From Escherichia coli (lineage in GTDB: Bacteria; Pseudomonadota; Gammaproteobacteria; Enterobacterales; Enterobacteriaceae), in NCBI RefSeq assembly GCF_011045215.1, contig NZ_CP049201.1: DNA of 64,000 bases; one strand, written 5' to 3'. The notes under the pieces were generated by a model. The model saw only the letters and a list, made by a program, of their open reading frames with translations, did not search any database and was not told the origin of the DNA. Position numbers and translations under genes: made by a program. This document shows, in pieces, positions 37,011-64,000 of the stretch (positions are counted from its first letter, which is position 1; each line of letters begins with the position of its first letter).

Positions 37011-37274
37011 TTAATGCCGGATAAATTAAACGCCTCTGTCAGAAATGATGGGGGCGTTTTTATTTTGCGAGCAGCATTCCTGATTTTAAACGTGAACGCC
37101 GCTGGAAGAATTATCAGGTATAGAATGGCGTCGGGTGCTTGAGGCTGTCTGGCGTTAAGCATTCGCGAGGTTCCAGATGGACAAAAGCCCCAGGCGATAT
37201 TTCTATCAACCTGAGGCCAGCGTTCGAACCTAAGCAATTCGAATGTTAGTCTCTTCTTTGCAGGGAGGCAAGAC

Positions 37275-37427
37275 ATGCTGACAAAATATGCCCTTGTGGC
37301 AATCATCGTACTGTGTTGTACAGTACTGGGATTCACGCTGATGGTAGGCGACTCGTTGTGTGAGTTGAGTATCAGAGAACGTGGTATGGAGTTTAAGGCT
37401 GTTCTCGCTTACGAATCGAAGAAGTAG
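37275..37427 (+). CDS. Hok/Gef-family type I toxin (50 aa)
   Basis: Not in the ORF track. ATG at 37275 preceded by GGGAGG; [50 protein letters not shown] has one TM helix and the Hok signature (CE..IR...E..A.LAYES). Same intergenic position as the K-12 hokX/sokX locus, as far as I recall. Confidence 0.75.
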
Positions 37428-55363: not shown

Positions 55364-56551
55364 ATGAGCGCGGGAAGCCCAAAATTCACCGTTCGCCGCA
55401 TTGCGGCTTTGTCACTGGTTTCGCTATGGCTGGCAGGCTGTTCTGACACTTCAAATCCACCGGCACCGGTCAGCTCCGTTAATGGCAATGCGCCTGCAAA
55501 TACCAATTCTGGTATGTTGATTACGCCGCCGCCGAAAATGGGGACGACGTCTACAGCGCAGCAACCGCAAATTCAGCCGGTGCAGCAGCCACAAATTCAG
55601 GCCACTCAACAACCGCAAATTCAGCCGGTGCAGCAGCCACAAATTCAGGCCACTCAACAACCGCAAATCCAGCCAGTGCAGCCAGTAGCTCAGCAGCCGG
55701 TACAGATGGAAAACGGACGCATCGTCTATAACCGTCAGTATGGGAACATTCCGAAAGGCAGTTATAGCGGCAGTACCTATACCGTGAAAAAAGGCGACAC
55801 ACTTTTCTATATCGCCTGGATTACTGGCAACGATTTCCGTGACCTTGCTCAGCGCAACAATATTCAGGCGCCCTACGCGCTGAACGTTGGTCAGACCTTG
55901 CAGGTGGGTAATGCTTCCGGTACGCCAATCACTGGCGGAAATGCCATTACCCAGGCCGATGCAGCAGAGCAAGGAGTTGTGATCAAGCCTGCACAAAATT
56001 CCACCGTTGCTGTTGCGTCGCAACCGACAATTACGTATTCTGAGTCTTCGGGTGAACAGAGTGCTAACAAAATGTTGCCGAACAACAAGCCAACTGCGAC
56101 CACGGTCACAGCGCCTGTAACGGTACCAACAGCAAGCACAACCGAGCCGACTGTCAGCAGTACATCAACCAGTACGCCTATCTCCACCTGGCGCTGGCCG
56201 ACTGAGGGCAAAGTGATCGAAACCTTTGGCGCTTCTGAGGGGGGCAACAAGGGGATTGATATCGCAGGCAGCAAAGGACAGGCAATTATCGCGACCGCAG
56301 ATGGCCGCGTTGTTTATGCCGGTAACGCGCTGCGCGGCTACGGTAATCTGATTATCATCAAACATAATGATGATTACCTGAGTGCCTACGCCCATAACGA
56401 CACAATGCTGGTCCGGGAACAACAAGAAGTGAAGGCGGGGCAAAAAATAGCAACCATGGGTAGCACCGGAACCAGTTCAACACGCTTGCATTTTGAAATT
56501 CGTTACAAGGGGAAATCCGTAAACCCGCTGCGTTATTTGCCGCAGCGATAA
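55364..56551 (+). CDS. nlpD: murein hydrolase activator lipoprotein NlpD
   Basis: 395-aa ORF; lipobox LAGCS; LysM; Q/P-rich repeats; C-terminal M23 LytM domain. Confidence 0.93.
55562..55681 (+). repeat. 48-bp in-frame tandem repeat inside nlpD (about 2.5 copies)
   Basis: Two identical 48-bp units at 55562-55609 and 55610-55657 (encoding [16 protein letters not shown]) plus a partial third copy. Confidence 0.85.
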
Positions 56552-56613
56552 ATCGGCGGAACCAGGCTTTTGCTTGAATGTTCCGTCAAGGGATCACGGG
56601 TAGGAGCCACCTT

Positions 56614-57606
56614 ATGAGTCAGAATACGCTGAAAGTTCATGATTTAAATGAAGATGCGGAATTTGATGAGAACGGAGTTGAGGTTTTTGACGAAAAGGCC
56701 TTAGTAGAAGAGGAACCCAGTGATAACGATTTGGCCGAAGAGGAACTGTTATCGCAGGGAGCCACACAGCGTGTGTTGGACGCGACTCAGCTTTACCTTG
56801 GTGAGATTGGTTATTCACCACTGTTAACGGCCGAAGAAGAAGTTTATTTTGCGCGTCGCGCACTGCGTGGAGATGTCGCCTCTCGCCGCCGGATGATCGA
56901 GAGTAACTTGCGTCTGGTGGTAAAAATTGCCCGCCGTTATGGCAATCGTGGTCTGGCGTTGCTGGACCTTATCGAAGAGGGCAACCTGGGGCTGATCCGC
57001 GCGGTAGAGAAGTTTGACCCGGAACGTGGTTTCCGCTTCTCAACATACGCAACCTGGTGGATTCGCCAGACGATTGAACGGGCGATTATGAACCAAACCC
57101 GTACTATTCGTTTGCCGATTCACATCGTAAAGGAGCTGAACGTTTACCTGCGAACCGCACGTGAGTTGTCCCATAAGCTGGACCATGAACCAAGTGCGGA
57201 AGAGATCGCAGAGCAACTGGATAAGCCAGTTGATGACGTCAGCCGTATGCTTCGTCTTAACGAGCGCATTACCTCGGTAGACACCCCGCTGGGTGGTGAT
57301 TCCGAAAAAGCGTTGCTGGACATCCTGGCCGATGAAAAAGAGAACGGTCCGGAAGATACCACGCAAGATGACGATATGAAGCAGAGCATCGTCAAATGGC
57401 TGTTCGAACTGAACGCCAAACAGCGTGAAGTACTGGCACGTCGATTCGGTTTGCTGGGGTACGAAGCGGCAACACTGGAAGATGTAGGTCGTGAAATTGG
57501 CCTCACCCGTGAACGTGTTCGCCAGATTCAGGTTGAAGGCCTGCGCCGTTTGCGCGAAATCCTGCAAACGCAGGGGCTGAATATCGAAGCGCTGTTCCGC
57601 GAATAA
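56614..57606 (+). CDS. rpoS: RNA polymerase sigma factor RpoS (sigma-38)
   Basis: ATG at 56614 after TAGGAG gives 330 aa ([20 protein letters not shown]...); the track ORF has an N-terminal extension; codon 33 is GAG (Glu), no amber. Confidence 0.96.
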
Positions 57607-57626
57607 GTAAGCATCTGTCAGAAAGA

Positions 57627-57660
57627 CCAGTCTCAAGCGAGGCTGGCCTTTTTCTTTTGT
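57627..57660 (+). terminator. rpoS intrinsic terminator
   Basis: 8-bp stem ccagtctc / gaggctgg with aagc loop, followed by cctttttctttt. Confidence 0.65.
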
Positions 57661-57725
57661 TTGGGAAGCTTGTGTTTTTGTCGCCTGGATAAGACACGTC
57701 AGCGTCCTACCCGGCAATTTGCATC

Positions 57726-58133
57726 CTATGTGTTCATCATCTTGCGCACCAGCTGCACAAACAGCTCCTGCTCTTCTGCACTCAAACGCCCCAAAAATTC
57801 CTCATCCACGCTGTCACCAATCGGTATCGCCGCAGCAAGTATCTTTTCTCCTTCGGCAGTCAGCCAGACAAAGCGACGCCGCTTGTCAGCGGCATCATGT
57901 TCACGTCTGACTAAGCCACGATTCTCCATTCTTGCCAACATTTCTGCCAACGTTGCTTTGGTGCTGACTGCTGCTTCTATCAGTGCCACCTGTTCGATAC
58001 CAGGCTTATCAGCAATGGCGCGCATCACCGCATACTGTGGTTTGGTCAGGTCAGGTAACTCGTGCTGCCAGCGAGCCGTGTGCTGCTGAAAAAGCTGTCG
58101 TAACTGATGGAACGCTTTATTTCGTAACGCCAT
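57726..58133 (-). CDS. MarR/SlyA-family transcriptional regulator
   Basis: 135-aa ORF with a winged-helix MarR-like profile; divergent from ecdB. Confidence 0.8.
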   Translation of the reverse strand: MALRNKAFHQLRQLFQQHTARWQHELPDLTKPQYAVMRAIADKPGIEQVALIEAAVSTKATLAEMLARMENRGLVRREHDAADKRRRFVWLTAEGEKILAAAIPIGDSVDEEFLGRLSAEEQELFVQLVRKMMNT

Positions 58134-58279
58134 GTAAACTCCGGGCTAATTCTCTGTCGCTATCATAGCGGTTTTTTAGTGACGAAGAAGATGTTGTTAC
58201 TTTTCAATCCTTGCCGCTGTGGAAATGAAGGAGTATGTTAATAATAACGTTCGTATACGAACAATTAAGAGAATAAGCA

Positions 58280-58873
58280 ATGAAACTGATCGTCGGGATG
58301 ACAGGGGCTACCGGTGCGCCTCTTGGTGTGGCATTACTGCAAGCGCTGCGGGAGATGCCGAATGTCGAGACTCATCTGGTGATGTCGAAGTGGGCGAAAA
58401 CCACCATTGAACTGGAAACGCCTTACAGCGCTCGCGATGTTGCTGCCCTCGCAGACTTCTGCCATAACCCGGCGGATCAGGCGGCGACCATCTCCTCAGG
58501 TTCCTTTCGTACCGACGGCATGATCGTTATTCCGTGCAGTATGAAAACGCTCGCCGGTATCCGCGCTGGTTACGCCGATGGCTTGGTAGGGCGCGCGGCG
58601 GACGTCGTGCTCAAAGAAGGCCGCAAACTGGTGCTGGTGCCGCGTGAAATGCCGCTTAGCACCATCCATCTCGAAAATATGCTCGCACTTTCACGCATGG
58701 GCGTGGCGATGGTGCCGCCGATGCCTGCCTTTTATAACCATCCCGAAACGGTAGATGACATTGTCCACCATGTGGTAGCCCGCGTGCTGGATCAATTTGG
58801 CCTCGAACATCCCCACGCCAGGCGCTGGCAAGGATTGCCGCAGGCCCGGAATTTTTCTCAGGAGAATGAATAA
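58280..58873 (+). CDS. ecdB: UbiX-like flavin prenyltransferase
   Basis: 197-aa ORF MKLIVGMTGATGAPLGVALLQAL... (flavoprotein fold, UbiX/Pad1 family). Confidence 0.88.
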   Translation: MKLIVGMTGATGAPLGVALLQALREMPNVETHLVMSKWAKTTIELETPYSARDVAALADFCHNPADQAATISSGSFRTDGMIVIPCSMKTLAGIRAGYADGLVGRAADVVLKEGRKLVLVPREMPLSTIHLENMLALSRMGVAMVPPMPAFYNHPETVDDIVHHVVARVLDQFGLEHPHARRWQGLPQARNFSQENE

Positions 58874-60300
58874 TGGCATTTGATGATTTACGCAGCTTTT
58901 TACAGGCGCTTGATGACCACGGCCAGTTACTGAAAATCAGCGAAGAAATGAACGCTGAACCGGATCTGGCTGCCGCTGCCAACGCCACCGGGCGTATCGG
59001 CGATGGTGCACCGGCGCTGTGGTTTGATAATATTCGCGGCTTTACCGATGCCCGCGTGGCGATGAATACCATCGGTTCCTGGCAGAACCACGCGATTTCC
59101 CTGGGCCTGCCGCCAAACACCCCGGTTAAAAAACAGATTGATGAATTCATCCGCCGCTGGGATAACTTCCCGATTGTCCCGGAACGCCGCGCCAATCCTG
59201 CCTGGGCGCAGAACACCGTCGATGGCGACGAGATTAATTTGTTCGATATCCTGCCACTGTTTCGTTTAAACGATGGCGATGGCGGTTTCTATCTCGACAA
59301 AGCCTGCGTGGTTTCCCGCGATCCGCTCGACCCAGATAACTTCGGCAAGCAGAACGTCGGCATCTACCGCATGGAAGTGAAGGGCAAGCGTAAGCTCGGC
59401 CTGCAACCGGTGCCGATGCACGATATCGCCCTGCATCTGCATAAAGCAGAAGAGCGCGGTGAAGATCTGCCGATTGCGATCACGCTCGGTAACGATCCGA
59501 TCATCACGCTGATGGGGGCCACGCCGCTGAAATACGATCAGTCTGAGTATGAAATGGCAGGCGCGCTGCGTGAAAGCCCGTACCCGATCGCCACCGCCCC
59601 GCTGACCGGTTTTGATGTGCCGTGGGGTTCAGAAGTGATCCTCGAAGGGGTCATCGAAAGCCGTAAGCGCGAAATCGAAGGGCCGTTCGGTGAGTTTACC
59701 GGACACTACTCCGGCGGGCGTAACATGACCGTGGTGCGCATCGATAAAGTCTCTTACCGCACCAGGCCGATTTTCGAATCGCTGTACCTCGGCATGCCGT
59801 GGACCGAAATCGACTACCTGATGGGGCCAGCCACCTGCGTACCGCTATATCAACAACTGAAAGCCGAGTTCCCGGAAGTGCAGGCGGTAAACGCCATGTA
59901 CACCCACGGCCTGCTGGCGATTATCTCCACCAAAAAACGCTACGGCGGCTTTGCCCGCGCGGTGGGCCTGCGCGCGATGACCACGCCGCACGGTCTGGGC
60001 TACGTGAAGATGGTGATTATGGTCGATGAAGACGTTGATCCGTTCAACCTGCCGCAGGTGATGTGGGCGCTCTCCTCGAAAGTGAACCCGGCAGGGGATT
60101 TGGTGCAGTTGCCGAATATGTCCGTGCTGGAACTCGACCCAGGCTCAAGCCCGGCGGGGATCACCGACAAGCTGATTATCGACGCCACCACGCCTGTTGC
60201 CCCGGACAACCGTGGTCACTACAGCCAGCCGGTGGTGGATTTACCGGAAACCAAAGCCTGGGCTGAAAAACTGACCGCTATGCTGGCTGCACGTAAATAA
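58873..60300 (+). CDS. ecdC: UbiD-family (prenyl-FMN-dependent) decarboxylase
   Basis: 475-aa ORF; start overlaps the ecdB stop (taATGg); UbiD-like architecture. Confidence 0.88.
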   Translation: MAFDDLRSFLQALDDHGQLLKISEEMNAEPDLAAAANATGRIGDGAPALWFDNIRGFTDARVAMNTIGSWQNHAISLGLPPNTPVKKQIDEFIRRWDNFPIVPERRANPAWAQNTVDGDEINLFDILPLFRLNDGDGGFYLDKACVVSRDPLDPDNFGKQNVGIYRMEVKGKRKLGLQPVPMHDIALHLHKAEERGEDLPIAITLGNDPIITLMGATPLKYDQSEYEMAGALRESPYPIATAPLTGFDVPWGSEVILEGVIESRKREIEGPFGEFTGHYSGGRNMTVVRIDKVSYRTRPIFESLYLGMPWTEIDYLMGPATCVPLYQQLKAEFPEVQAVNAMYTHGLLAIISTKKRYGGFARAVGLRAMTTPHGLGYVKMVIMVDEDVDPFNLPQVMWALSSKVNPAGDLVQLPNMSVLELDPGSSPAGITDKLIIDATTPVAPDNRGHYSQPVVDLPETKAWAEKLTAMLAARK

Positions 60301-60310
60301 GGAGAAGAAG

Positions 60311-60547
60311 ATGATTTGTCCACGTTGTGCCGATGAACAGATTGAAGTGATGGCGAAATCGCCGGTGAAAGATGTCTGGACGGTATATCAGTGCCAGCAT
60401 TGCCTTTATACCTGGCGCGATACCGAACCGCTACGCCGCACCAGCCGCGAACATTATCCCGAAGCGTTCCGCATGACGCAGAAAGATATTGATGACGCGC
60501 CAATGGTGCCGAGCATCCCGCCGCTGCTGGCGGAAGGTAAGCGCTAA
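60311..60547 (+). CDS. ecdD: small Zn-ribbon subunit of the phenolic-acid decarboxylase-type complex
   Basis: 78-aa ORF with CPRC...CQHC zinc-ribbon pattern; third gene of the operon. Confidence 0.8.
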   Translation: MICPRCADEQIEVMAKSPVKDVWTVYQCQHCLYTWRDTEPLRRTSREHYPEAFRMTQKDIDDAPMVPSIPPLLAEGKR

Positions 60548-60555
60548 TAAAAAGT

Positions 60556-60583
60556 GCCGGGTAGTGGCTTTGCTTTACCCGGC
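60556..60583. terminator. bidirectional terminator between convergent ecdD and pphB
   Basis: gccgggta - 12-nt loop - tacccggc with T-rich flanks on both strands. Confidence 0.65.
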
Positions 60584-60587
60584 CTCA

Positions 60588-61243
60588 TTACTTTATTTTA
60601 TAAAATGACAGCCGCCCGCTGTTCGGCGATCCGGTATCAATATAAATCTGGTTAGCGAACGTCTGAATGTTATCAAACATCATATGTCCAAATATAAAAT
60701 AATCAGCGCCGTTTATTTGTTGTAACTCGCCATTAAGCGATTTCTGCACACGATCAACAGGCCAGAGTAATTCGCTCTCCGCTATTTCTTTACCAAAGAG
60801 ATATTCACTCCCCGGATAATCTGCATGTGCGATGACATATTTTATGTTGTCGTTAGTGATTTAATAATATGTGGAAGGTGATGGAATTTCAGCAACAGAT
60901 CTATTGCCTCTTGTTGCTCTGAATCATTTAAATCGAAAAACCAGTCACCACCGCTGGCAAGCCACATATTTCCATCGCCAGTTTCGAATGCCTCAAGGGC
61001 CATCGCTTCGTGGTTGCCTTTAGCCGATGTAAACCAGGACTGGTTTAACAGGCGCAGCACGTTAAGACTCTCCGGCCCACGATCGATGTTATCGCCTGTG
61101 GAAATAAGTAAGTCGGTTTCAGGGCAAAAAGAGAGTTGATGTAAACGGGATTGTAATAACTGATATTCACCATGAATATCACCAACGACCCATATATGGC
61201 GATAATGATGGGCATTGACTTTTTGATAGCGTGTAGATGGCAT
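60588..61243 (-). pseudogene. pphB: serine/threonine protein phosphatase 2 (PphB/PrpB), frameshifted
   Basis: N-terminal 133 codons (61243 to 60842, GDIHG...GDNIDRG...GNHE) stop at TAA; the C-terminal part (KYVIAHADYPGSEY...FIFGHMMFDN...) continues in another frame to a stop at 60588. The pattern fits a 1-nt loss in an A-run near 60860-60863. Confidence 0.7.
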
Positions 61244-61348
61244 GGTTTTACCCTGTAAAATAAGCTTTCCTATTATACAGGGTATTTTTATTTGATTCGT
61301 CAGCTGTAGATAATATTCCCGATAGTATTTTTCTACCGGGAATTATAA

Positions 61349-63910
61349 TTACACCAGACTCTTCAAGCGATAAATCCACTCCAGCGCCTGACGCGGGGTG
61401 AGTGAATCCGGATCGAGGTTTTCCAGTGCCTCGACCGCAGGCGAAGTTTCTTCCGGTACTGACAGCAAAGACATTTGCGTACCATCCACTTGCGTAGCGG
61501 CGGCGTTCGGCGAAATGCTTTCCAGCTCACGCAGTTTTTGCCGTGCGCGCTTAATAACCTCTTTTGGCACGCCGGCCAGAGCTGCAACCGCCAGGCCGTA
61601 GCTTTTGCTCGCCGCGCCATCCTGCACGCTATGCATAAAGGCAATGGTGTCGCCGTGCTCCAGTGCATCGAGATGCACGTTGGCGACGCCTTCCATTTTC
61701 TCCGGTAACTGGGTCAGCTCAAAATAGTGGGTAGCAAACAGCGTCAATGCCTTAATCTTATTCGCCAGATTTTCCGCGCACGCCCATGCCAGTGACAGAC
61801 CATCGTAAGTGGACGTTCCACGCCCGATCTCATCCATTAACACCAGACTGTATTCGGTGGCGTTATGTAAAATATTGGCGGTTTCAGTCATCTCCACCAT
61901 AAAGGTTGAGCGCCCGGAAGCCAGGTCATCTGCCGCGCCTACGCGGGTAAAGATACGGTCAATCGGTCCAATCTCGACTTTTTGTGCCGGTACATAGCTG
62001 CCGATGTAGGCCATCAGCGCAATCAGTGCGGTCTGGCGCATATAGGTACTTTTACCACCCATGTTCGGACCGGTGATGATCAACATGCGGCGCTGCGGCG
62101 ACAGATTCAGCGGGTTAGCGATAAATGGCTCATTCAGTACTTGTTCAACTACCGGATGGCGACCTTCGGTAATGCGAATGCCCGGTTTATCAATAAAGGT
62201 CGGGCAGGTGTAATTCAGGGTATAGGCCCGTTCCGCCAGGTTCACCAGCACGTCGAGTTCCGCCAGCGCGCTCGCGCTCTGTTGCAACGCTTCCAGATGC
62301 GGCAACAGCAGGTCGAACAACTCTTCATAAAGCTGTTTTTCCAGTGCCAGTGCTTTGCCTTTTGAGGTGAGAACTTTATCTTCGTACTCTTTTAGCTCTG
62401 GAATGATGTAGCGCTCGGCGTTTTTCAGCGTCTGGCGACGCATGTAGTTGATGGGTGCCAGATGGCTTTGCCCACGGCTGATTTGAATGTAGTAGCCGTG
62501 CACCGCATTAAAGCCAACTTTCAGCGTGTCCAGGCCGGTACGTTCACGCTCGCGGACTTCCAGACGCTCCAGATAATCGGTCGCGCCGTCAGCCAGCGCG
62601 CGCCACTCATCCAGCTCTTCGTTATAGCCCGATGCGATAACACCACCGTCGCGTACCAGCACCGGCGGTGCGTCGATGATTGCTCGCTCCAGCAGATCGC
62701 GCAGCTCGGCAAACTCGCCCATCTTCTCACGTAGCGCCTGTACCGGTGCACTATCAACAGGTTCTAACTGCGCACGCAGCTCCGGCAGTTGCTGGAAAGC
62801 GTGACGCATACGGGCCAGATCGCGTGGGCGAGCGGTACGCAACGCCAGACGCGCCAGAATACGTTCCAGGTCGCCAACCTGACGTAGTACCGGCTGTAGC
62901 CCGGCGGTGAAATCCTGCAATGCGCCAATAGTTTGCTGGCGCTCAAGCAACACGCGGGTATCGCGCACTGGCATATGCAGCCAGCGTTTCAGCATACGGC
63001 TGCCCATCGGCGTGACGGTGCAGTCGAGTACAGAAGCCAGCGTGTTTTCCGCACTGCCCGCCAGGTTCTGGGTAATTTCCAGGTTACGACGCGTCGCGGC
63101 ATCCATAATGATGCTGTCCTGCTCACGTTCCATGGTGATGGAACGAATATGCGGCAGAGTCGTACGTTGGGTATCTTTCGCATACTGCAACAGACAACCG
63201 GCAGCACAAAGTCCGCGCGGCGCGTTCTCGACGCCAAAACCGACCAGATCGCGAGTGCCAAATTGTAGATTCAACTGCTGGCGCGCGGTGTCGATTTCAA
63301 ACTCCCACAGCGGGCGACGGCGCAGGCCGCGACGGCCTTCAATTAACGACATTTCAGCAAAATCTTCTGCATACAGCAGTTCCGCAGGATTAGTGCGTTG
63401 CAGTTCTGCCGCCATCGTTTCCCGGTCAGCCGGTTCGCTCAGGCGAAAACGACCGGAACTGATATCCAGCGTCGCGTAGCCGAAACCTTTGCTGTCCTGC
63501 CAGATAGCCGCCAGCAGGTTGTCCTGACGCTCCTGCAACAGGGCTTCATCGCTGATGGTGCCTGGCGTAACGATACGCACAACTTTGCGCTCAACCGGAC
63601 CTTTGCTGGTCGCCGGATCGCCAATTTGTTCGCAGATGGCAACGGACTCGCCCTGATTCACCAGTTTGGCGAGGTAGTTTTCCACCGCATGGTAGGGAAT
63701 CCCCGCCATCGGGATCGGCTCTCCCGCCGAAGCACCGCGTTTGGTCAGTGAAATATCCAGCAGTTGCGATGCGCGTTTTGCGTCGTCATAAAACAGTTCA
63801 TAAAAATCACCCATCCGGTAAAACAGCAGGATCTCGGGATGCTGGGCTTTCAGCTTGAGATACTGCTGCATCATGGGCGTATGGGCGTCGAAATTTTCTA
63901 TTGCACTCAT
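61349..63910 (-). CDS. mutS: DNA mismatch repair protein MutS
   Basis: 853-aa [43 protein letters not shown]...; Walker [10 protein letters not shown]. Confidence 0.97.
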
Positions 63911-64000
63911 GGGGTTATGTCCGGTTCCCTGATATTAAATGGGGTGTGATGGTTTTTATTTTCGTTGTAATCACATAAGGCGCACATGATACCGGAGTTA

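Follow-up and report, generated by a model that had tools for sequence, protein, structure and literature searches.

Gene content and borders of the segment

The window, i.e. the whole 64-kb stretch of Escherichia coli DNA that was analysed, carries a 2.9-kb segment between rpoS and mutS that is absent from K-12. Its limits were set at 57653–60588 because the BLAST homology to K-12 stops at 57652 and resumes at 60589; the bounds proposed earlier (57661–60587) lie near these breakpoints, being off by 8 bp on the left and 1 bp on the right. The segment contains four intact genes, hosA and the divergently oriented ecdB, ecdC and ecdD (Table 1), which match base-for-base the RefSeq CDS calls in E. 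coli PS10-3 and O157:H7 FRIK804. The DNA on the rpoS side (56000–57652) is 99.5% identical to that of K-12, and the DNA from 60589 to 64000 is 97.3% identical.

Table 1. Coordinates of genes and sequence features in and around the non-K-12 segment (positions in the window)
Feature	Position	Strand	Description
rpoS	56614–57606	+	Left flank, 330 aa, intact; protein end ALFRE
rpoS intrinsic terminator	57627–57660	+	Terminator scan, fold and junction alignment
hosA	57726–58133	-	MarR-family, 4-hydroxybenzoate-sensing repressor, 135 aa; near-identity to PDB 8AGA
Second palindrome	58158–58170	.	CGCTAT-C-ATAGCG, in the divergent promoter region
HosA operator	58249–58262	.	GTTCGTATACGAAC, 14-bp perfect palindrome, exact match to the published site
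ecdB (vdcB/pad1)	58280–58873	+	UbiX-type flavin prenyltransferase, 197 aa; NCBIfam and PDB 1SBZ
ecdC (vdcC)	58873–60300	+	UbiD-type prFMN-dependent decarboxylase, 475 aa
ecdD (vdcD)	60311–60547	+	Small zinc-ribbon activator subunit, 78 aa
ecdD–pphB hairpin	60556–60583	.	Inverted repeat GCCGGGTA...TACCCGGC between convergent ecdD and pphB
pphB	60588–61243	-	Right flank, frameshifted by a 1-bp deletion
mutS	61349–63910	-	Right flank, 853 aa, intact ORF

According to the junction alignment with K-12, the left breakpoint (57652/57653) falls inside the T-run of the rpoS terminator. The existence of this terminator, claimed at the position given in Table 1, was borne out by the terminator scan, which recovers a hairpin (57627–57646) followed by a T-run (-17.3 kcal/mol, z = -2.35). 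On the right, K-12 homology restarts at the stop codon of pphB, which is TAA here and TAG in K-12. The inverted repeat announced between ecdD and pphB was recovered as well; either strand can form the hairpin (-18.4 and -19.9 kcal/mol, z about -3), which plausibly acts as a bidirectional terminator. It is found as a single copy in the window, and its interpretation as a dispersed, REP-like repeat was rejected.

The adjoining pphB gene measures 656 bp, one less than the 657 bp of four references, the lost base being a G between 60862 and 60863; a stop follows codon 133 and the two resulting ORF fragments match positions 1–128 and 166–218 of PRK09968. Judging from its reading frame, pphB is thus inactivated by a 1-bp deletion, which indicates some gene decay in the lineage, the ORFs of the cassette being all full length.

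A tRNA scan found no tRNA gene in the window and therefore no tRNA-type integration site. The search of Rfam over the whole window gave no match inside the segment or close to it. The sole Rfam match in the window is the sok antitoxin (37133–37290).

The ecdBCD genes encode a VdcBCD-type decarboxylase system

The original prediction had assigned the three products to the UbiX, UbiD and EcdD families, and the profile and structure searches place each of them there. EcdB exceeds the cut-offs of the NCBIfam model VdcB NF041206 (312.6, cut-off 290) and of the UbiX family TIGR00421 (247.8, cut-off 108.9), and Pfam PF02441 (Flavoprotein) is recorded on an identical locus. It shares 195 of its 197 residues with Pad1 of O157:H7, for which an FMN-binding dodecameric structure is available (PDB 1SBZ).

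EcdC scores 786.9 with VdcC NF041204 (cut-off 650) and 415.2 with TIGR00148 (cut-off 244.85), and the Pfam domains UbiD_N, UbiD and UbiD_C are recorded on an identical locus. Its similarity to ShVdcC (PDB 7AE4) is strong and full-length (E = 6.5e-160), but the UbiD equivalog PRK10922 gives only 172.9 for a cut-off of 788. The motifs NVGIYR (N161, R166) and EGPFGE (E269-x4-E274) as well as H183 and E225 were found in EcdC, and the six residues N161/R166/H183/E225/E269/E274 are spaced as N168/R173/H191/E233/E277/E282 of Fdc1. From this motif spacing, they would be the counterparts of the Fdc1 residues, among which R173, E277 and E282 are listed as kept by VdcC, and would cover the catalytic Glu-Arg-Glu triad and the ligands of the metal and of the prFMN phosphate. 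Four other contigs encode an EcdC of identical sequence.

EcdD largely exceeds the cut-off of VdcD NF041205 (121.2, cut-off 30), corresponds to Pfam PF26358 and aligns to ShdD (PDB 7AE4 chain a), from which it is more diverged (E = 3e-11, with a 6-residue insertion). Its cysteines 3, 6, 28 and 31 form two CXXC zinc knuckles and are the same as the Zn ligands of ShVdcD (PMC8379154). The stop codon of ecdB and the start codon of ecdC overlap by 1 nt (TAATG), and ecdD is preceded by a 10-nt spacer containing AGGAG.

The VdcCD systems of Sedimentibacter hydroxybenzoicus and Bacillus subtilis (ShdCD, BsdCD) share with EcdCD the association of a UbiD-type C protein with a zinc-ribbon D protein carrying two CXXC, the catalytic E-R-E motif and the presence of a B (UbiX) gene in the operon. 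However, the related loci of the Bacillus type have neither a HosA homologue nor a HosA operator. In Bacillus, the regulator of the BsdCD-type genes is the LysR-type protein BsdA.

HosA and its operator

The regulator had been described as SlyA-like. Its MarR type is correct, as Pfam MarR is recorded on an identical hosA locus and RefSeq labels it as a MarR family protein, but it is not a SlyA orthologue, since the SlyA equivalog model NF002926 scores 30.2 for a cut-off of 120; the SlyA entries of the PDB match with E values of only about 5e-8. The protein is HosA: it is identical to PDB 8AGA ('Transcriptional regulator HosA') at 133 of 135 positions, the two differences being V98I and M126V. 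F15 (interface) and D110 (ligand contact), which the HosA structure preprint names, are both kept in the alignment to 8AGA. The gene was formerly annotated slyA (PMC4209514).

HosA is described as a repressor of the operon and of its own gene, with 4-hydroxybenzoate (4-HBA) as inducer (Roy & Ranjan 2016, as quoted second-hand). A 38-fold response to 4-HBA in vivo and a KD of about 4.7 µM have been published for HosA. In EPEC, HosA is reported to affect motility and flagellin, and for this reason the HosA regulon may exceed the ecdBCD operon.

The best NCBIfam relative of HosA is BagL/FevM, a MarR protein encoded beside UbiX/UbiD genes. The Streptomyces bagremycin/ferroverdin clusters (BagL/FevM-BagM/FevK-BagN/FevL) likewise associate a MarR regulator with UbiX- and UbiD-family genes, and their models rank first or high among the NCBIfam relatives of HosA and EcdB. 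However, all scores remain below the cut-offs (88 vs 230, 342 vs 420 and 113 vs 1000), and these clusters are biosynthetic pathways, unlike the hosA-ecdBCD operon.

The operator GTTCGTATACGAAC ends 17 bp before the ATG of ecdB and has a single exact match in the 64-kb window. It appears with the same flanks in published HosA-binding oligonucleotides (PMC6261655 supplement), and the literature search found no main-text mention of its sequence. It is conserved across the E. coli alleles compared and strictly accompanies hosA homologues: outside E. coli, each of the 37 hosA-ecdB loci evaluated has it with 0–2 mismatches. In the 1.04 Mb scanned, its 40 occurrences are all located upstream of ecdB/ecdC and none elsewhere. 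It lies 13–30 bp before ecdB in enterobacteria, in Vibrio and in high-G+C Actinobacteria (Nocardia, Amycolatopsis, Pseudonocardia and Saccharopolyspora), in which HosA identity falls to 42–53%, and it is absent from lineages devoid of a HosA homologue. We tentatively propose from these sequence comparisons that HosA, its 14-bp operator and the BCD decarboxylase genes might travel as one unit across phyla.

The second palindrome of the divergent promoter region is invariant in six E. coli alleles, whereas about 15% of the other intergenic columns vary, and it is only partly conserved in other genera. It is possibly a hosA promoter or autoregulation site.

Distribution of the cassette and relation to ygbI-ygbN

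The flanks of the K-12 rpoS–mutS region are the same as those of the window (rpoS and its terminator, pphB and mutS). K-12 lacks hosA-ecdBCD and carries 6.1 kb of ygbI-N (tetronate/threonate genes), whereas the reverse is observed here, no ygbI-ygbN DNA of K-12 being found anywhere in the 64 kb. The earlier wording, according to which the cassette stands 'instead of ygbI-ygbN', is therefore accurate for this window but does not hold in the sense of alleles. Indeed, the cassette is present in 2,417 of the 5,426 complete E. coli genomes compared; 1,593 have cassette and ygbI-N side by side, versus 804 (about 15%) with the exact ecdD–pphB junction of the window; the K-12 junction is present in 1,944. 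As so many genomes hold both segments, they are not alleles.

The hairpin located between ecdD and pphB is specific to the arrangement devoid of ygb genes, being missing from K-12 and from both junctions of the arrangement with both segments. The derivation of the window arrangement from the latter by one clean deletion was considered and rejected, as such an event does not account for the 29–33 bp hairpin, which is at neither of these junctions.

The rpoS–mutS interval had been presented as a known polymorphic region with an O157:H7-like, non-K-12 arrangement in this strain. Both points agree with published data and with the comparisons made here, the window being an ordinary, already described variant whose gene order is that of O157:H7 FRIK804 and differs from K-12. 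'Pattern I' (O157:H7-type) was defined as rpoS-hosA-ecdBCD-pphB-mutS without ygbN (o454) and other ygb genes (PMC4209514). With its O157:H7 gene order, its lack of ygb genes and a junction common to the 804 genomes, the window belongs to this pattern, and for typing the strain falls into the O157:H7-type class of the region.

The hosA-HAD operon of O157:H7, EPEC and UPEC UMN026 occupies this chromosomal site too and consists of these four genes, arranged and oriented alike; its operator is identical, and HosA and EcdB of the window closely match the crystallised proteins, as given above. The differences from the O157:H7-type operon are only allelic, except that the adjoining pphB is frameshifted in the strain studied here. 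The 2.9 kb of cassette DNA are 97.2% identical to O157:H7 and 98.6% identical to the best complete genome, and the best complete E. coli genomes show 97.8–98.9% identity to each third of the window. Run SRR11014969 contains a Logan contig with 100% identity across 8.4 kb, and GCA_910665095.1 reaches 99.96%.

Origin of the cassette

The rpoS-hosA-ecdBCD-mutS synteny is also found in Citrobacter, Kluyvera, Pseudocitrobacter, Cedecea, Kosakonia, Klebsiella indica and Phytobacter, as well as, with a spacer of about 2.6 kb, in Enterobacter, Leclercia and Lelliottia. Because other genera share this synteny, the cassette is most likely ancestral and was lost by K-12-like lineages. Early papers and a 2024 preprint call it an 'insert', which would have been acquired from Shigella. 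A recent genomic island, horizontally acquired by non-K-12 or pathogenic lineages, would fit with its absence from K-12, with its presence in just 2,417 of the 5,426 complete genomes and with a G+C content of 0.57–0.60 inside ecdC versus about 0.50–0.53 around rpoS and 0.43–0.46 in pphB; this origin is moreover asserted by the preprint. However, neither integrase, IS element, tRNA nor direct repeats are found at the segment borders. Furthermore, the ecdD–ygbN terminator sequence is kept directly after the rpoS terminator at the K-12 junction, as a deletion predicts, and the shared synteny across genera points to a cassette that was present ancestrally and disappeared from K-12-type lineages. 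Recent acquisition therefore appears unlikely, and the synteny across genera corrects the common description of the cassette as an 'insert' of pathogenic strains.

Function of the cassette

The segment very probably corresponds to the hosA-ecdBCD cassette (also named kpdR-kpdBCD, slyA-pad1-yclC-yclD or 'HAD operon'), a self-contained, inducible detoxification/catabolic module. The polymorphism of the region, the response of HosA to 4-HBA and the VdcCD mechanism are all published, and the genes are already in the RefSeq annotation.

Taken together, the functioning of the module can be viewed as follows. In the absence of inducer, a dimer of HosA would sit on GTTCGTATACGAAC upstream of ecdB and shut off both the operon and the divergently transcribed hosA; binding of 4-HBA would free HosA from the operator. 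EcdB is predicted to prenylate FMN, giving prFMN. With this cofactor, EcdC would convert 4-HBA-type phenolic acids to phenols by a reversible, non-oxidative reaction, while the zinc ribbon of EcdD would bind EcdC and keep its catalytic Glu-Arg-Glu loops positioned. VdcC requires VdcD, uses 4-HBA and vanillate as substrates and forms with VdcD an oxygen-sensitive enzyme (PMC8379154). By analogy, the enzyme of this strain is presumed to have the same substrates and to be expressed. The original prediction had implied a capacity for non-oxidative decarboxylation of phenolic acids, naming hydroxybenzoates or hydroxycinnamates for assays. 4-HBA-type acids are likely, by extrapolation from the Sedimentibacter/Bacillus VdcCD and from the ligand of HosA; no evidence was found for hydroxycinnamates.

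Other readings of the genes were weighed. The membership of EcdB and EcdC in the UbiX/UbiD families and PDB matches including E. coli UbiD (2IDB, E = 1.5e-46) would be compatible with spare ubiquinone genes, i.e. UbiX/UbiD paralogues acting on 3-polyprenyl-4-hydroxybenzoate. This role is very improbable, as EcdC stays far below the PRK10922 cut-off (172.9 vs 788), whereas it passes that of VdcC, as a VdcD subunit gene is present and as the regulator answers to free 4-HBA; moreover, half of the E. coli genomes lack the cassette, which is therefore not essential for ubiquinone synthesis. Decay of the cassette into a non-functional state, like pphB, is likewise very improbable. The frameshift in pphB and the lack of a close relative of the lineage among complete genomes (best match 98.3%) could point to it, but none of the four ORFs is truncated and all are collinear with the RefSeq CDSs, the residues for catalysis, Zn and ligand binding are preserved, the operator palindrome is perfect and the identical EcdC occurs in four other contigs.

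It is less improbable, though still unlikely, that HosA is mainly a global regulator of virulence and motility of the SlyA type, its linkage to the decarboxylase genes being incidental. The old slyA annotation and the flagellin/motility effect reported in EPEC would be in line with such a role. However, the SlyA equivalog score is low (30.2 vs 120), the operator occurs just once in the 64-kb window and the best NCBIfam relative of HosA, BagL/FevM, adjoins UbiX/UbiD genes. The hosA-ecdB pair and the operator are conserved together from Enterobacteriaceae through Vibrio to Actinobacteria, a pattern in favour of a local regulator dedicated to these genes.

Biological implications

From its hosA-ecdBCD module, this strain is predicted to be able to form phenol from 4-HBA, hydrolysed parabens and plant- or tyrosine-derived phenolics included, probably when oxygen is low. 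Such a reaction bears on the production of phenol and phenyl sulfate in the gut. If the association of HosA, operator and decarboxylase genes across phyla is true and unreported, it would make an unusually clear example of a full sensor-operator-enzyme module conserved, or transferred, between phyla and would also supply a set of orthogonal 4-HBA biosensors ready for use.

Gene order and boundaries of the rpoS-mutS region

Between 54000 and 64000, the ORF listing gives the order surE, pcm, nlpD, rpoS, the four genes of a hosA-ecdBCD cassette, two pphB fragments and mutS. The ecdBCD genes are closely packed, with a 1-nt overlap between ecdB and ecdC (TAATG) and a 10-nt spacer carrying AGGAG 5' of ecdD. 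All four cassette ORFs are exact RefSeq CDSs in E. coli PS10-3 and O157:H7 FRIK804, where hosA is labelled 'MarR family winged helix-turn-helix transcriptional regulator' and ecdB, ecdC and ecdD are labelled 'non-oxidative hydroxyarylic acid decarboxylases subunit' B, C and D, respectively.

Genes between rpoS and mutS (window positions)
Gene	ORF	Position	Strand	Source
rpoS		56614-57606		ORF listing
hosA	135 aa	57726-58133	minus	ORF listing
ecdB	197 aa	58280-58873	plus	ORF listing
ecdC	475 aa	58873-60300	plus	ORF listing
ecdD	78 aa	60311-60547	plus	ORF listing
pphB	two fragments	60588-61243	minus	ORF listing
mutS		61349-63910	minus	ORF listing

In a BLAST search with 56000-64000, homology to K-12 MG1655 extends to 57652 (99.5% identity) and restarts from 60589 (97.3%). 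The left breakpoint lies within the T-run of the rpoS terminator, whose hairpin (57627-57646) folds at -17.3 kcal/mol. The right one is the pphB stop codon (TAA in the window versus TAG in K-12), and both strands of an inverted repeat at 60556-60583 fold (z ~ -3). As the breakpoints and the hairpin folds agree, the limits 57661-60587 and both terminator borders put forward in the original prediction are essentially right. Placing the strain outside the K-12 lineage is correct but trivial, as K-12 is devoid of the segment and only 97.3% identical on the mutS side.

The pphB gene (protein phosphatase 2) is a pseudogene: relative to K-12, O157:H7, PS10-3 and L006 (one of the loci retrieved from other genomes, numbered with L), one G is missing between 60862 and 60863, leading to a frame shift after codon 127 and a stop after codon 133. 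A truncated product of 133 aa is likewise called in L005 and L007, but pphB is intact in L006, whose EcdC is identical to that of the window. In E. coli EECO1006, a gene encoding a TPR protein lies between pphB and mutS (L009, 6611-7474).

The closest complete E. coli genomes share 97.8-98.9% identity with any third of the window, and none of them is a close relative. A Logan contig from SRR11014969 matches the window at 100% identity over 8,362 bp, and GCA_910665095.1 reaches 99.96% (L005 and L007). In the latter, the gene after mutS, beyond the window end, encodes a phage-type integrase, and MutS is called at 855 aa. Within nlpD, a 48-bp tandem repeat (55562-55682, 2.5 copies) encodes QQPQIQ-type units; NlpD has 395 aa in the window versus 379 aa in K-12, i.e. 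one more repeat unit, and nlpD length also varies in other E. coli loci retrieved. The segment 22001-44000 aligns to the E. coli cysJIH / type I-E cas3-casA region (97.6-97.8% in the best complete genomes). A chromosomal hok/sok-type sok antitoxin RNA (37133-37290, plus strand; RF01794, 111.7 bits) is the sole match at Rfam gathering score in the 64 kb, no CRISPR RNA family reaching this threshold in the whole window.

Distribution and origin of the cassette

The hosA-ecdBCD arrangement was read correctly in the original prediction; it is a textbook polymorphism and therefore already known. The 2.9-kb cassette is present in 2,417 of 5,426 complete E. coli genomes (94.5-98.6% identity), always on the chromosome. 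The ecdD-pphB junction, found in the window and O157:H7, occurs in 804 of these 5,426 genomes, the ecdD-ygbN junction, with both segments side by side (e.g. PapM-32-1), in 1,593 and the K-12-type rpoS-ygbN junction in 1,944; the remaining ~1,085 presumably belong to the B2 'pattern III' type of Ewers et al. In PMC4209514, where the genes are named kpdB, kpdC, kpdD and slyA, the equivalents of these junction classes are patterns I-IV. Since 1,593 genomes carry both segments, the cassette and ygbI-N are adjacent modules and not alternative alleles. Thus, the proposal that the cassette stands instead of ygbI-ygbN holds for this strain, no ygbI-ygbN DNA being found in the entire 64-kb window, but not for the species. 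A simple one-step deletion from the arrangement with both segments does not account for the ygb-less state, because the ecdD-pphB spacer of the window (60548-60588) and its hairpin are found at neither junction of L004 (16573-16600 and 22620-22651), which has that arrangement.

With a degenerate DNA pattern based on the EcdC motif EGPFGEFTGHY, 120 loci were collected from species-representative genomes, and their synteny was assessed by tblastn with flank proteins. The order rpoS-hosA-ecdBCD-mutS is found in Citrobacter, Kluyvera, Pseudocitrobacter, Cedecea, Kosakonia, Klebsiella indica and Phytobacter, the cassette being inverted in Phytobacter. Enterobacter, Leclercia and Lelliottia share the synteny with ~2.6 kb extra between rpoS and hosA (L034, L041, L072). 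In Pseudocitrobacter (L069), pphB also adjoins ecdD; in Entomohabitans (L093), ygbKLMN do. ORF listing and tRNA scan revealed neither mobility genes nor tRNAs at the cassette borders, and the K-12 junction keeps the ecdD-ygbN terminator immediately 3' of the rpoS terminator. Taken together, these data indicate that the cassette is most likely ancestral at the rpoS-mutS site, its absence from K-12-like lineages being due to deletion. The work of Herbelin et al. (2000) and that of Kotewicz et al. (2003) reportedly agree with such an ancestral cassette lost in K-12-like lineages. The synteny, the borders and the terminator kept in K-12 argue against the description of the cassette as an 'insert' of pathogens in a 2024 preprint.

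One retrieved contig, assigned to a 'Collinsella sp.' MAG (L113; JAIJJM010000891.1, 1,158 bp), codes for parts of EcdC (100% identity to the window protein) and EcdD (99%), and is almost certainly an Escherichia contamination of that MAG.

Decarboxylase subunits

Curated HMMs assign EcdB to VdcB (312.6, cut-off 290) and to the UbiX family (247.8, cut-off 108.9), EcdC to VdcC (786.9, cut-off 650) and EcdD to VdcD (121.2, cut-off 30). EcdB is identical to O157:H7 Pad1 (PDB 1SBZ) at 195 of 197 positions. EcdC matches ShVdcC of PDB 7AE4 over its full length (E = 6.5e-160), keeps N161, R166, H183, E225, E269 and E274, and its motif spacing matches R173, E277 and E282 of Fdc1, stated as conserved in the VdcCD paper. 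It is not the ubiquinone enzyme UbiD (PRK10922 equivalog, 172.9 versus a cut-off of 788). EcdD can be aligned to ShdD of PDB 7AE4, and its C3, C6, C28 and C31 are the four zinc ligands of ShVdcD. According to the VdcCD paper, VdcC is inactive without VdcD, which stabilises the loops bearing the E-R-E triad, the enzyme acts on 4-hydroxybenzoate (4-HBA) and vanillate, and its prFMN cofactor is sensitive to oxygen. Of the substrates originally proposed, hydroxybenzoates are thus expected for EcdBCD, but hydroxycinnamates are not.

HosA and its operator

HosA scores below every equivalog cut-off; its best NCBIfam relative is BagL/FevM, a MarR protein whose gene adjoins UbiX/UbiD genes in Streptomyces. 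It is identical at 133 of 135 positions to the 'Transcriptional regulator HosA' of PDB 8AGA and six further entries, and retains F15 and D110, highlighted for ligand binding in the HosA structure preprint. The 'SlyA-like' gene is therefore indeed a MarR-type regulator gene, but its product is HosA and not a SlyA orthologue (30.2 versus a cut-off of 120). According to a published summary of Roy and Ranjan (2016), HosA of UPEC UMN026 represses its own gene as well as the hydroxyarylic acid decarboxylase operon; it binds a palindrome situated 3' of the transcription start, from which 4-hydroxybenzoate releases it. The binding site is a 14-bp palindrome and the KD for 4-HBA is ~4.7 uM; in a reporter circuit, the O157:H7 regulator gave 4-HBA-specific induction of up to 38-fold.

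The published HosA oligonucleotides carry ...TAATAATAAC-GTTCGTATACGAAC-AATTAAGAGAATAA..., which is the window sequence around 58249-58262. This operator has one exact match in the 64 kb, 17 bp 5' of the ecdB ATG, and is kept in six E. coli alleles despite their many intergenic differences, one allele showing a single A-to-G change. Among loci that combine a divergent hosA homologue with a usable intergenic region, which include Vibrio and Actinobacteria (HosA identity 42-55%), the palindrome is present in 37/37 (0-2 mismatches; 0 or 1 in 35), mostly 13-30 bp before the first decarboxylase gene. The E. coli operator GTTCGTATACGAAC itself, with 0-1 mismatches, lies in the hosA-ecdB intergenic region of Vibrio and high-G+C Actinobacteria (L024, L051, L057, L059, L064, L083, L105, L107). 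In the 120 loci, which total 1.04 Mb, there are 40 occurrences of the motif (<=1 mismatch), every one of them 5' of ecdB/ecdC. Where no HosA homologue is present (Streptomyces, Bacillus, Paenibacillus), the motif is missing, apart from two loci that are cut off shortly before ecdB. A full-text literature search gave no main-text mention of the operator sequence, which is not proof of novelty, and its conservation across taxa is the one mildly new observation.

Between hosA and ecdB there is another palindrome, CGCTAT-C-ATAGCG (58158-58170), with a T-run after it, 25 bp before the start of hosA on the opposite strand. Six E. coli alleles with otherwise variable intergenic regions share it unchanged, and its conservation in other genera is only partial. 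It may serve as a promoter of hosA or in hosA autoregulation.

The co-conservation of the operator with HosA homologues supports HosA as a dedicated local regulator. Combined with the operator match in the window, the published biology of HosA and VdcCD would provide a complete mechanism, including a sensor, an operator, a cofactor synthase, a decarboxylase and an activator subunit.
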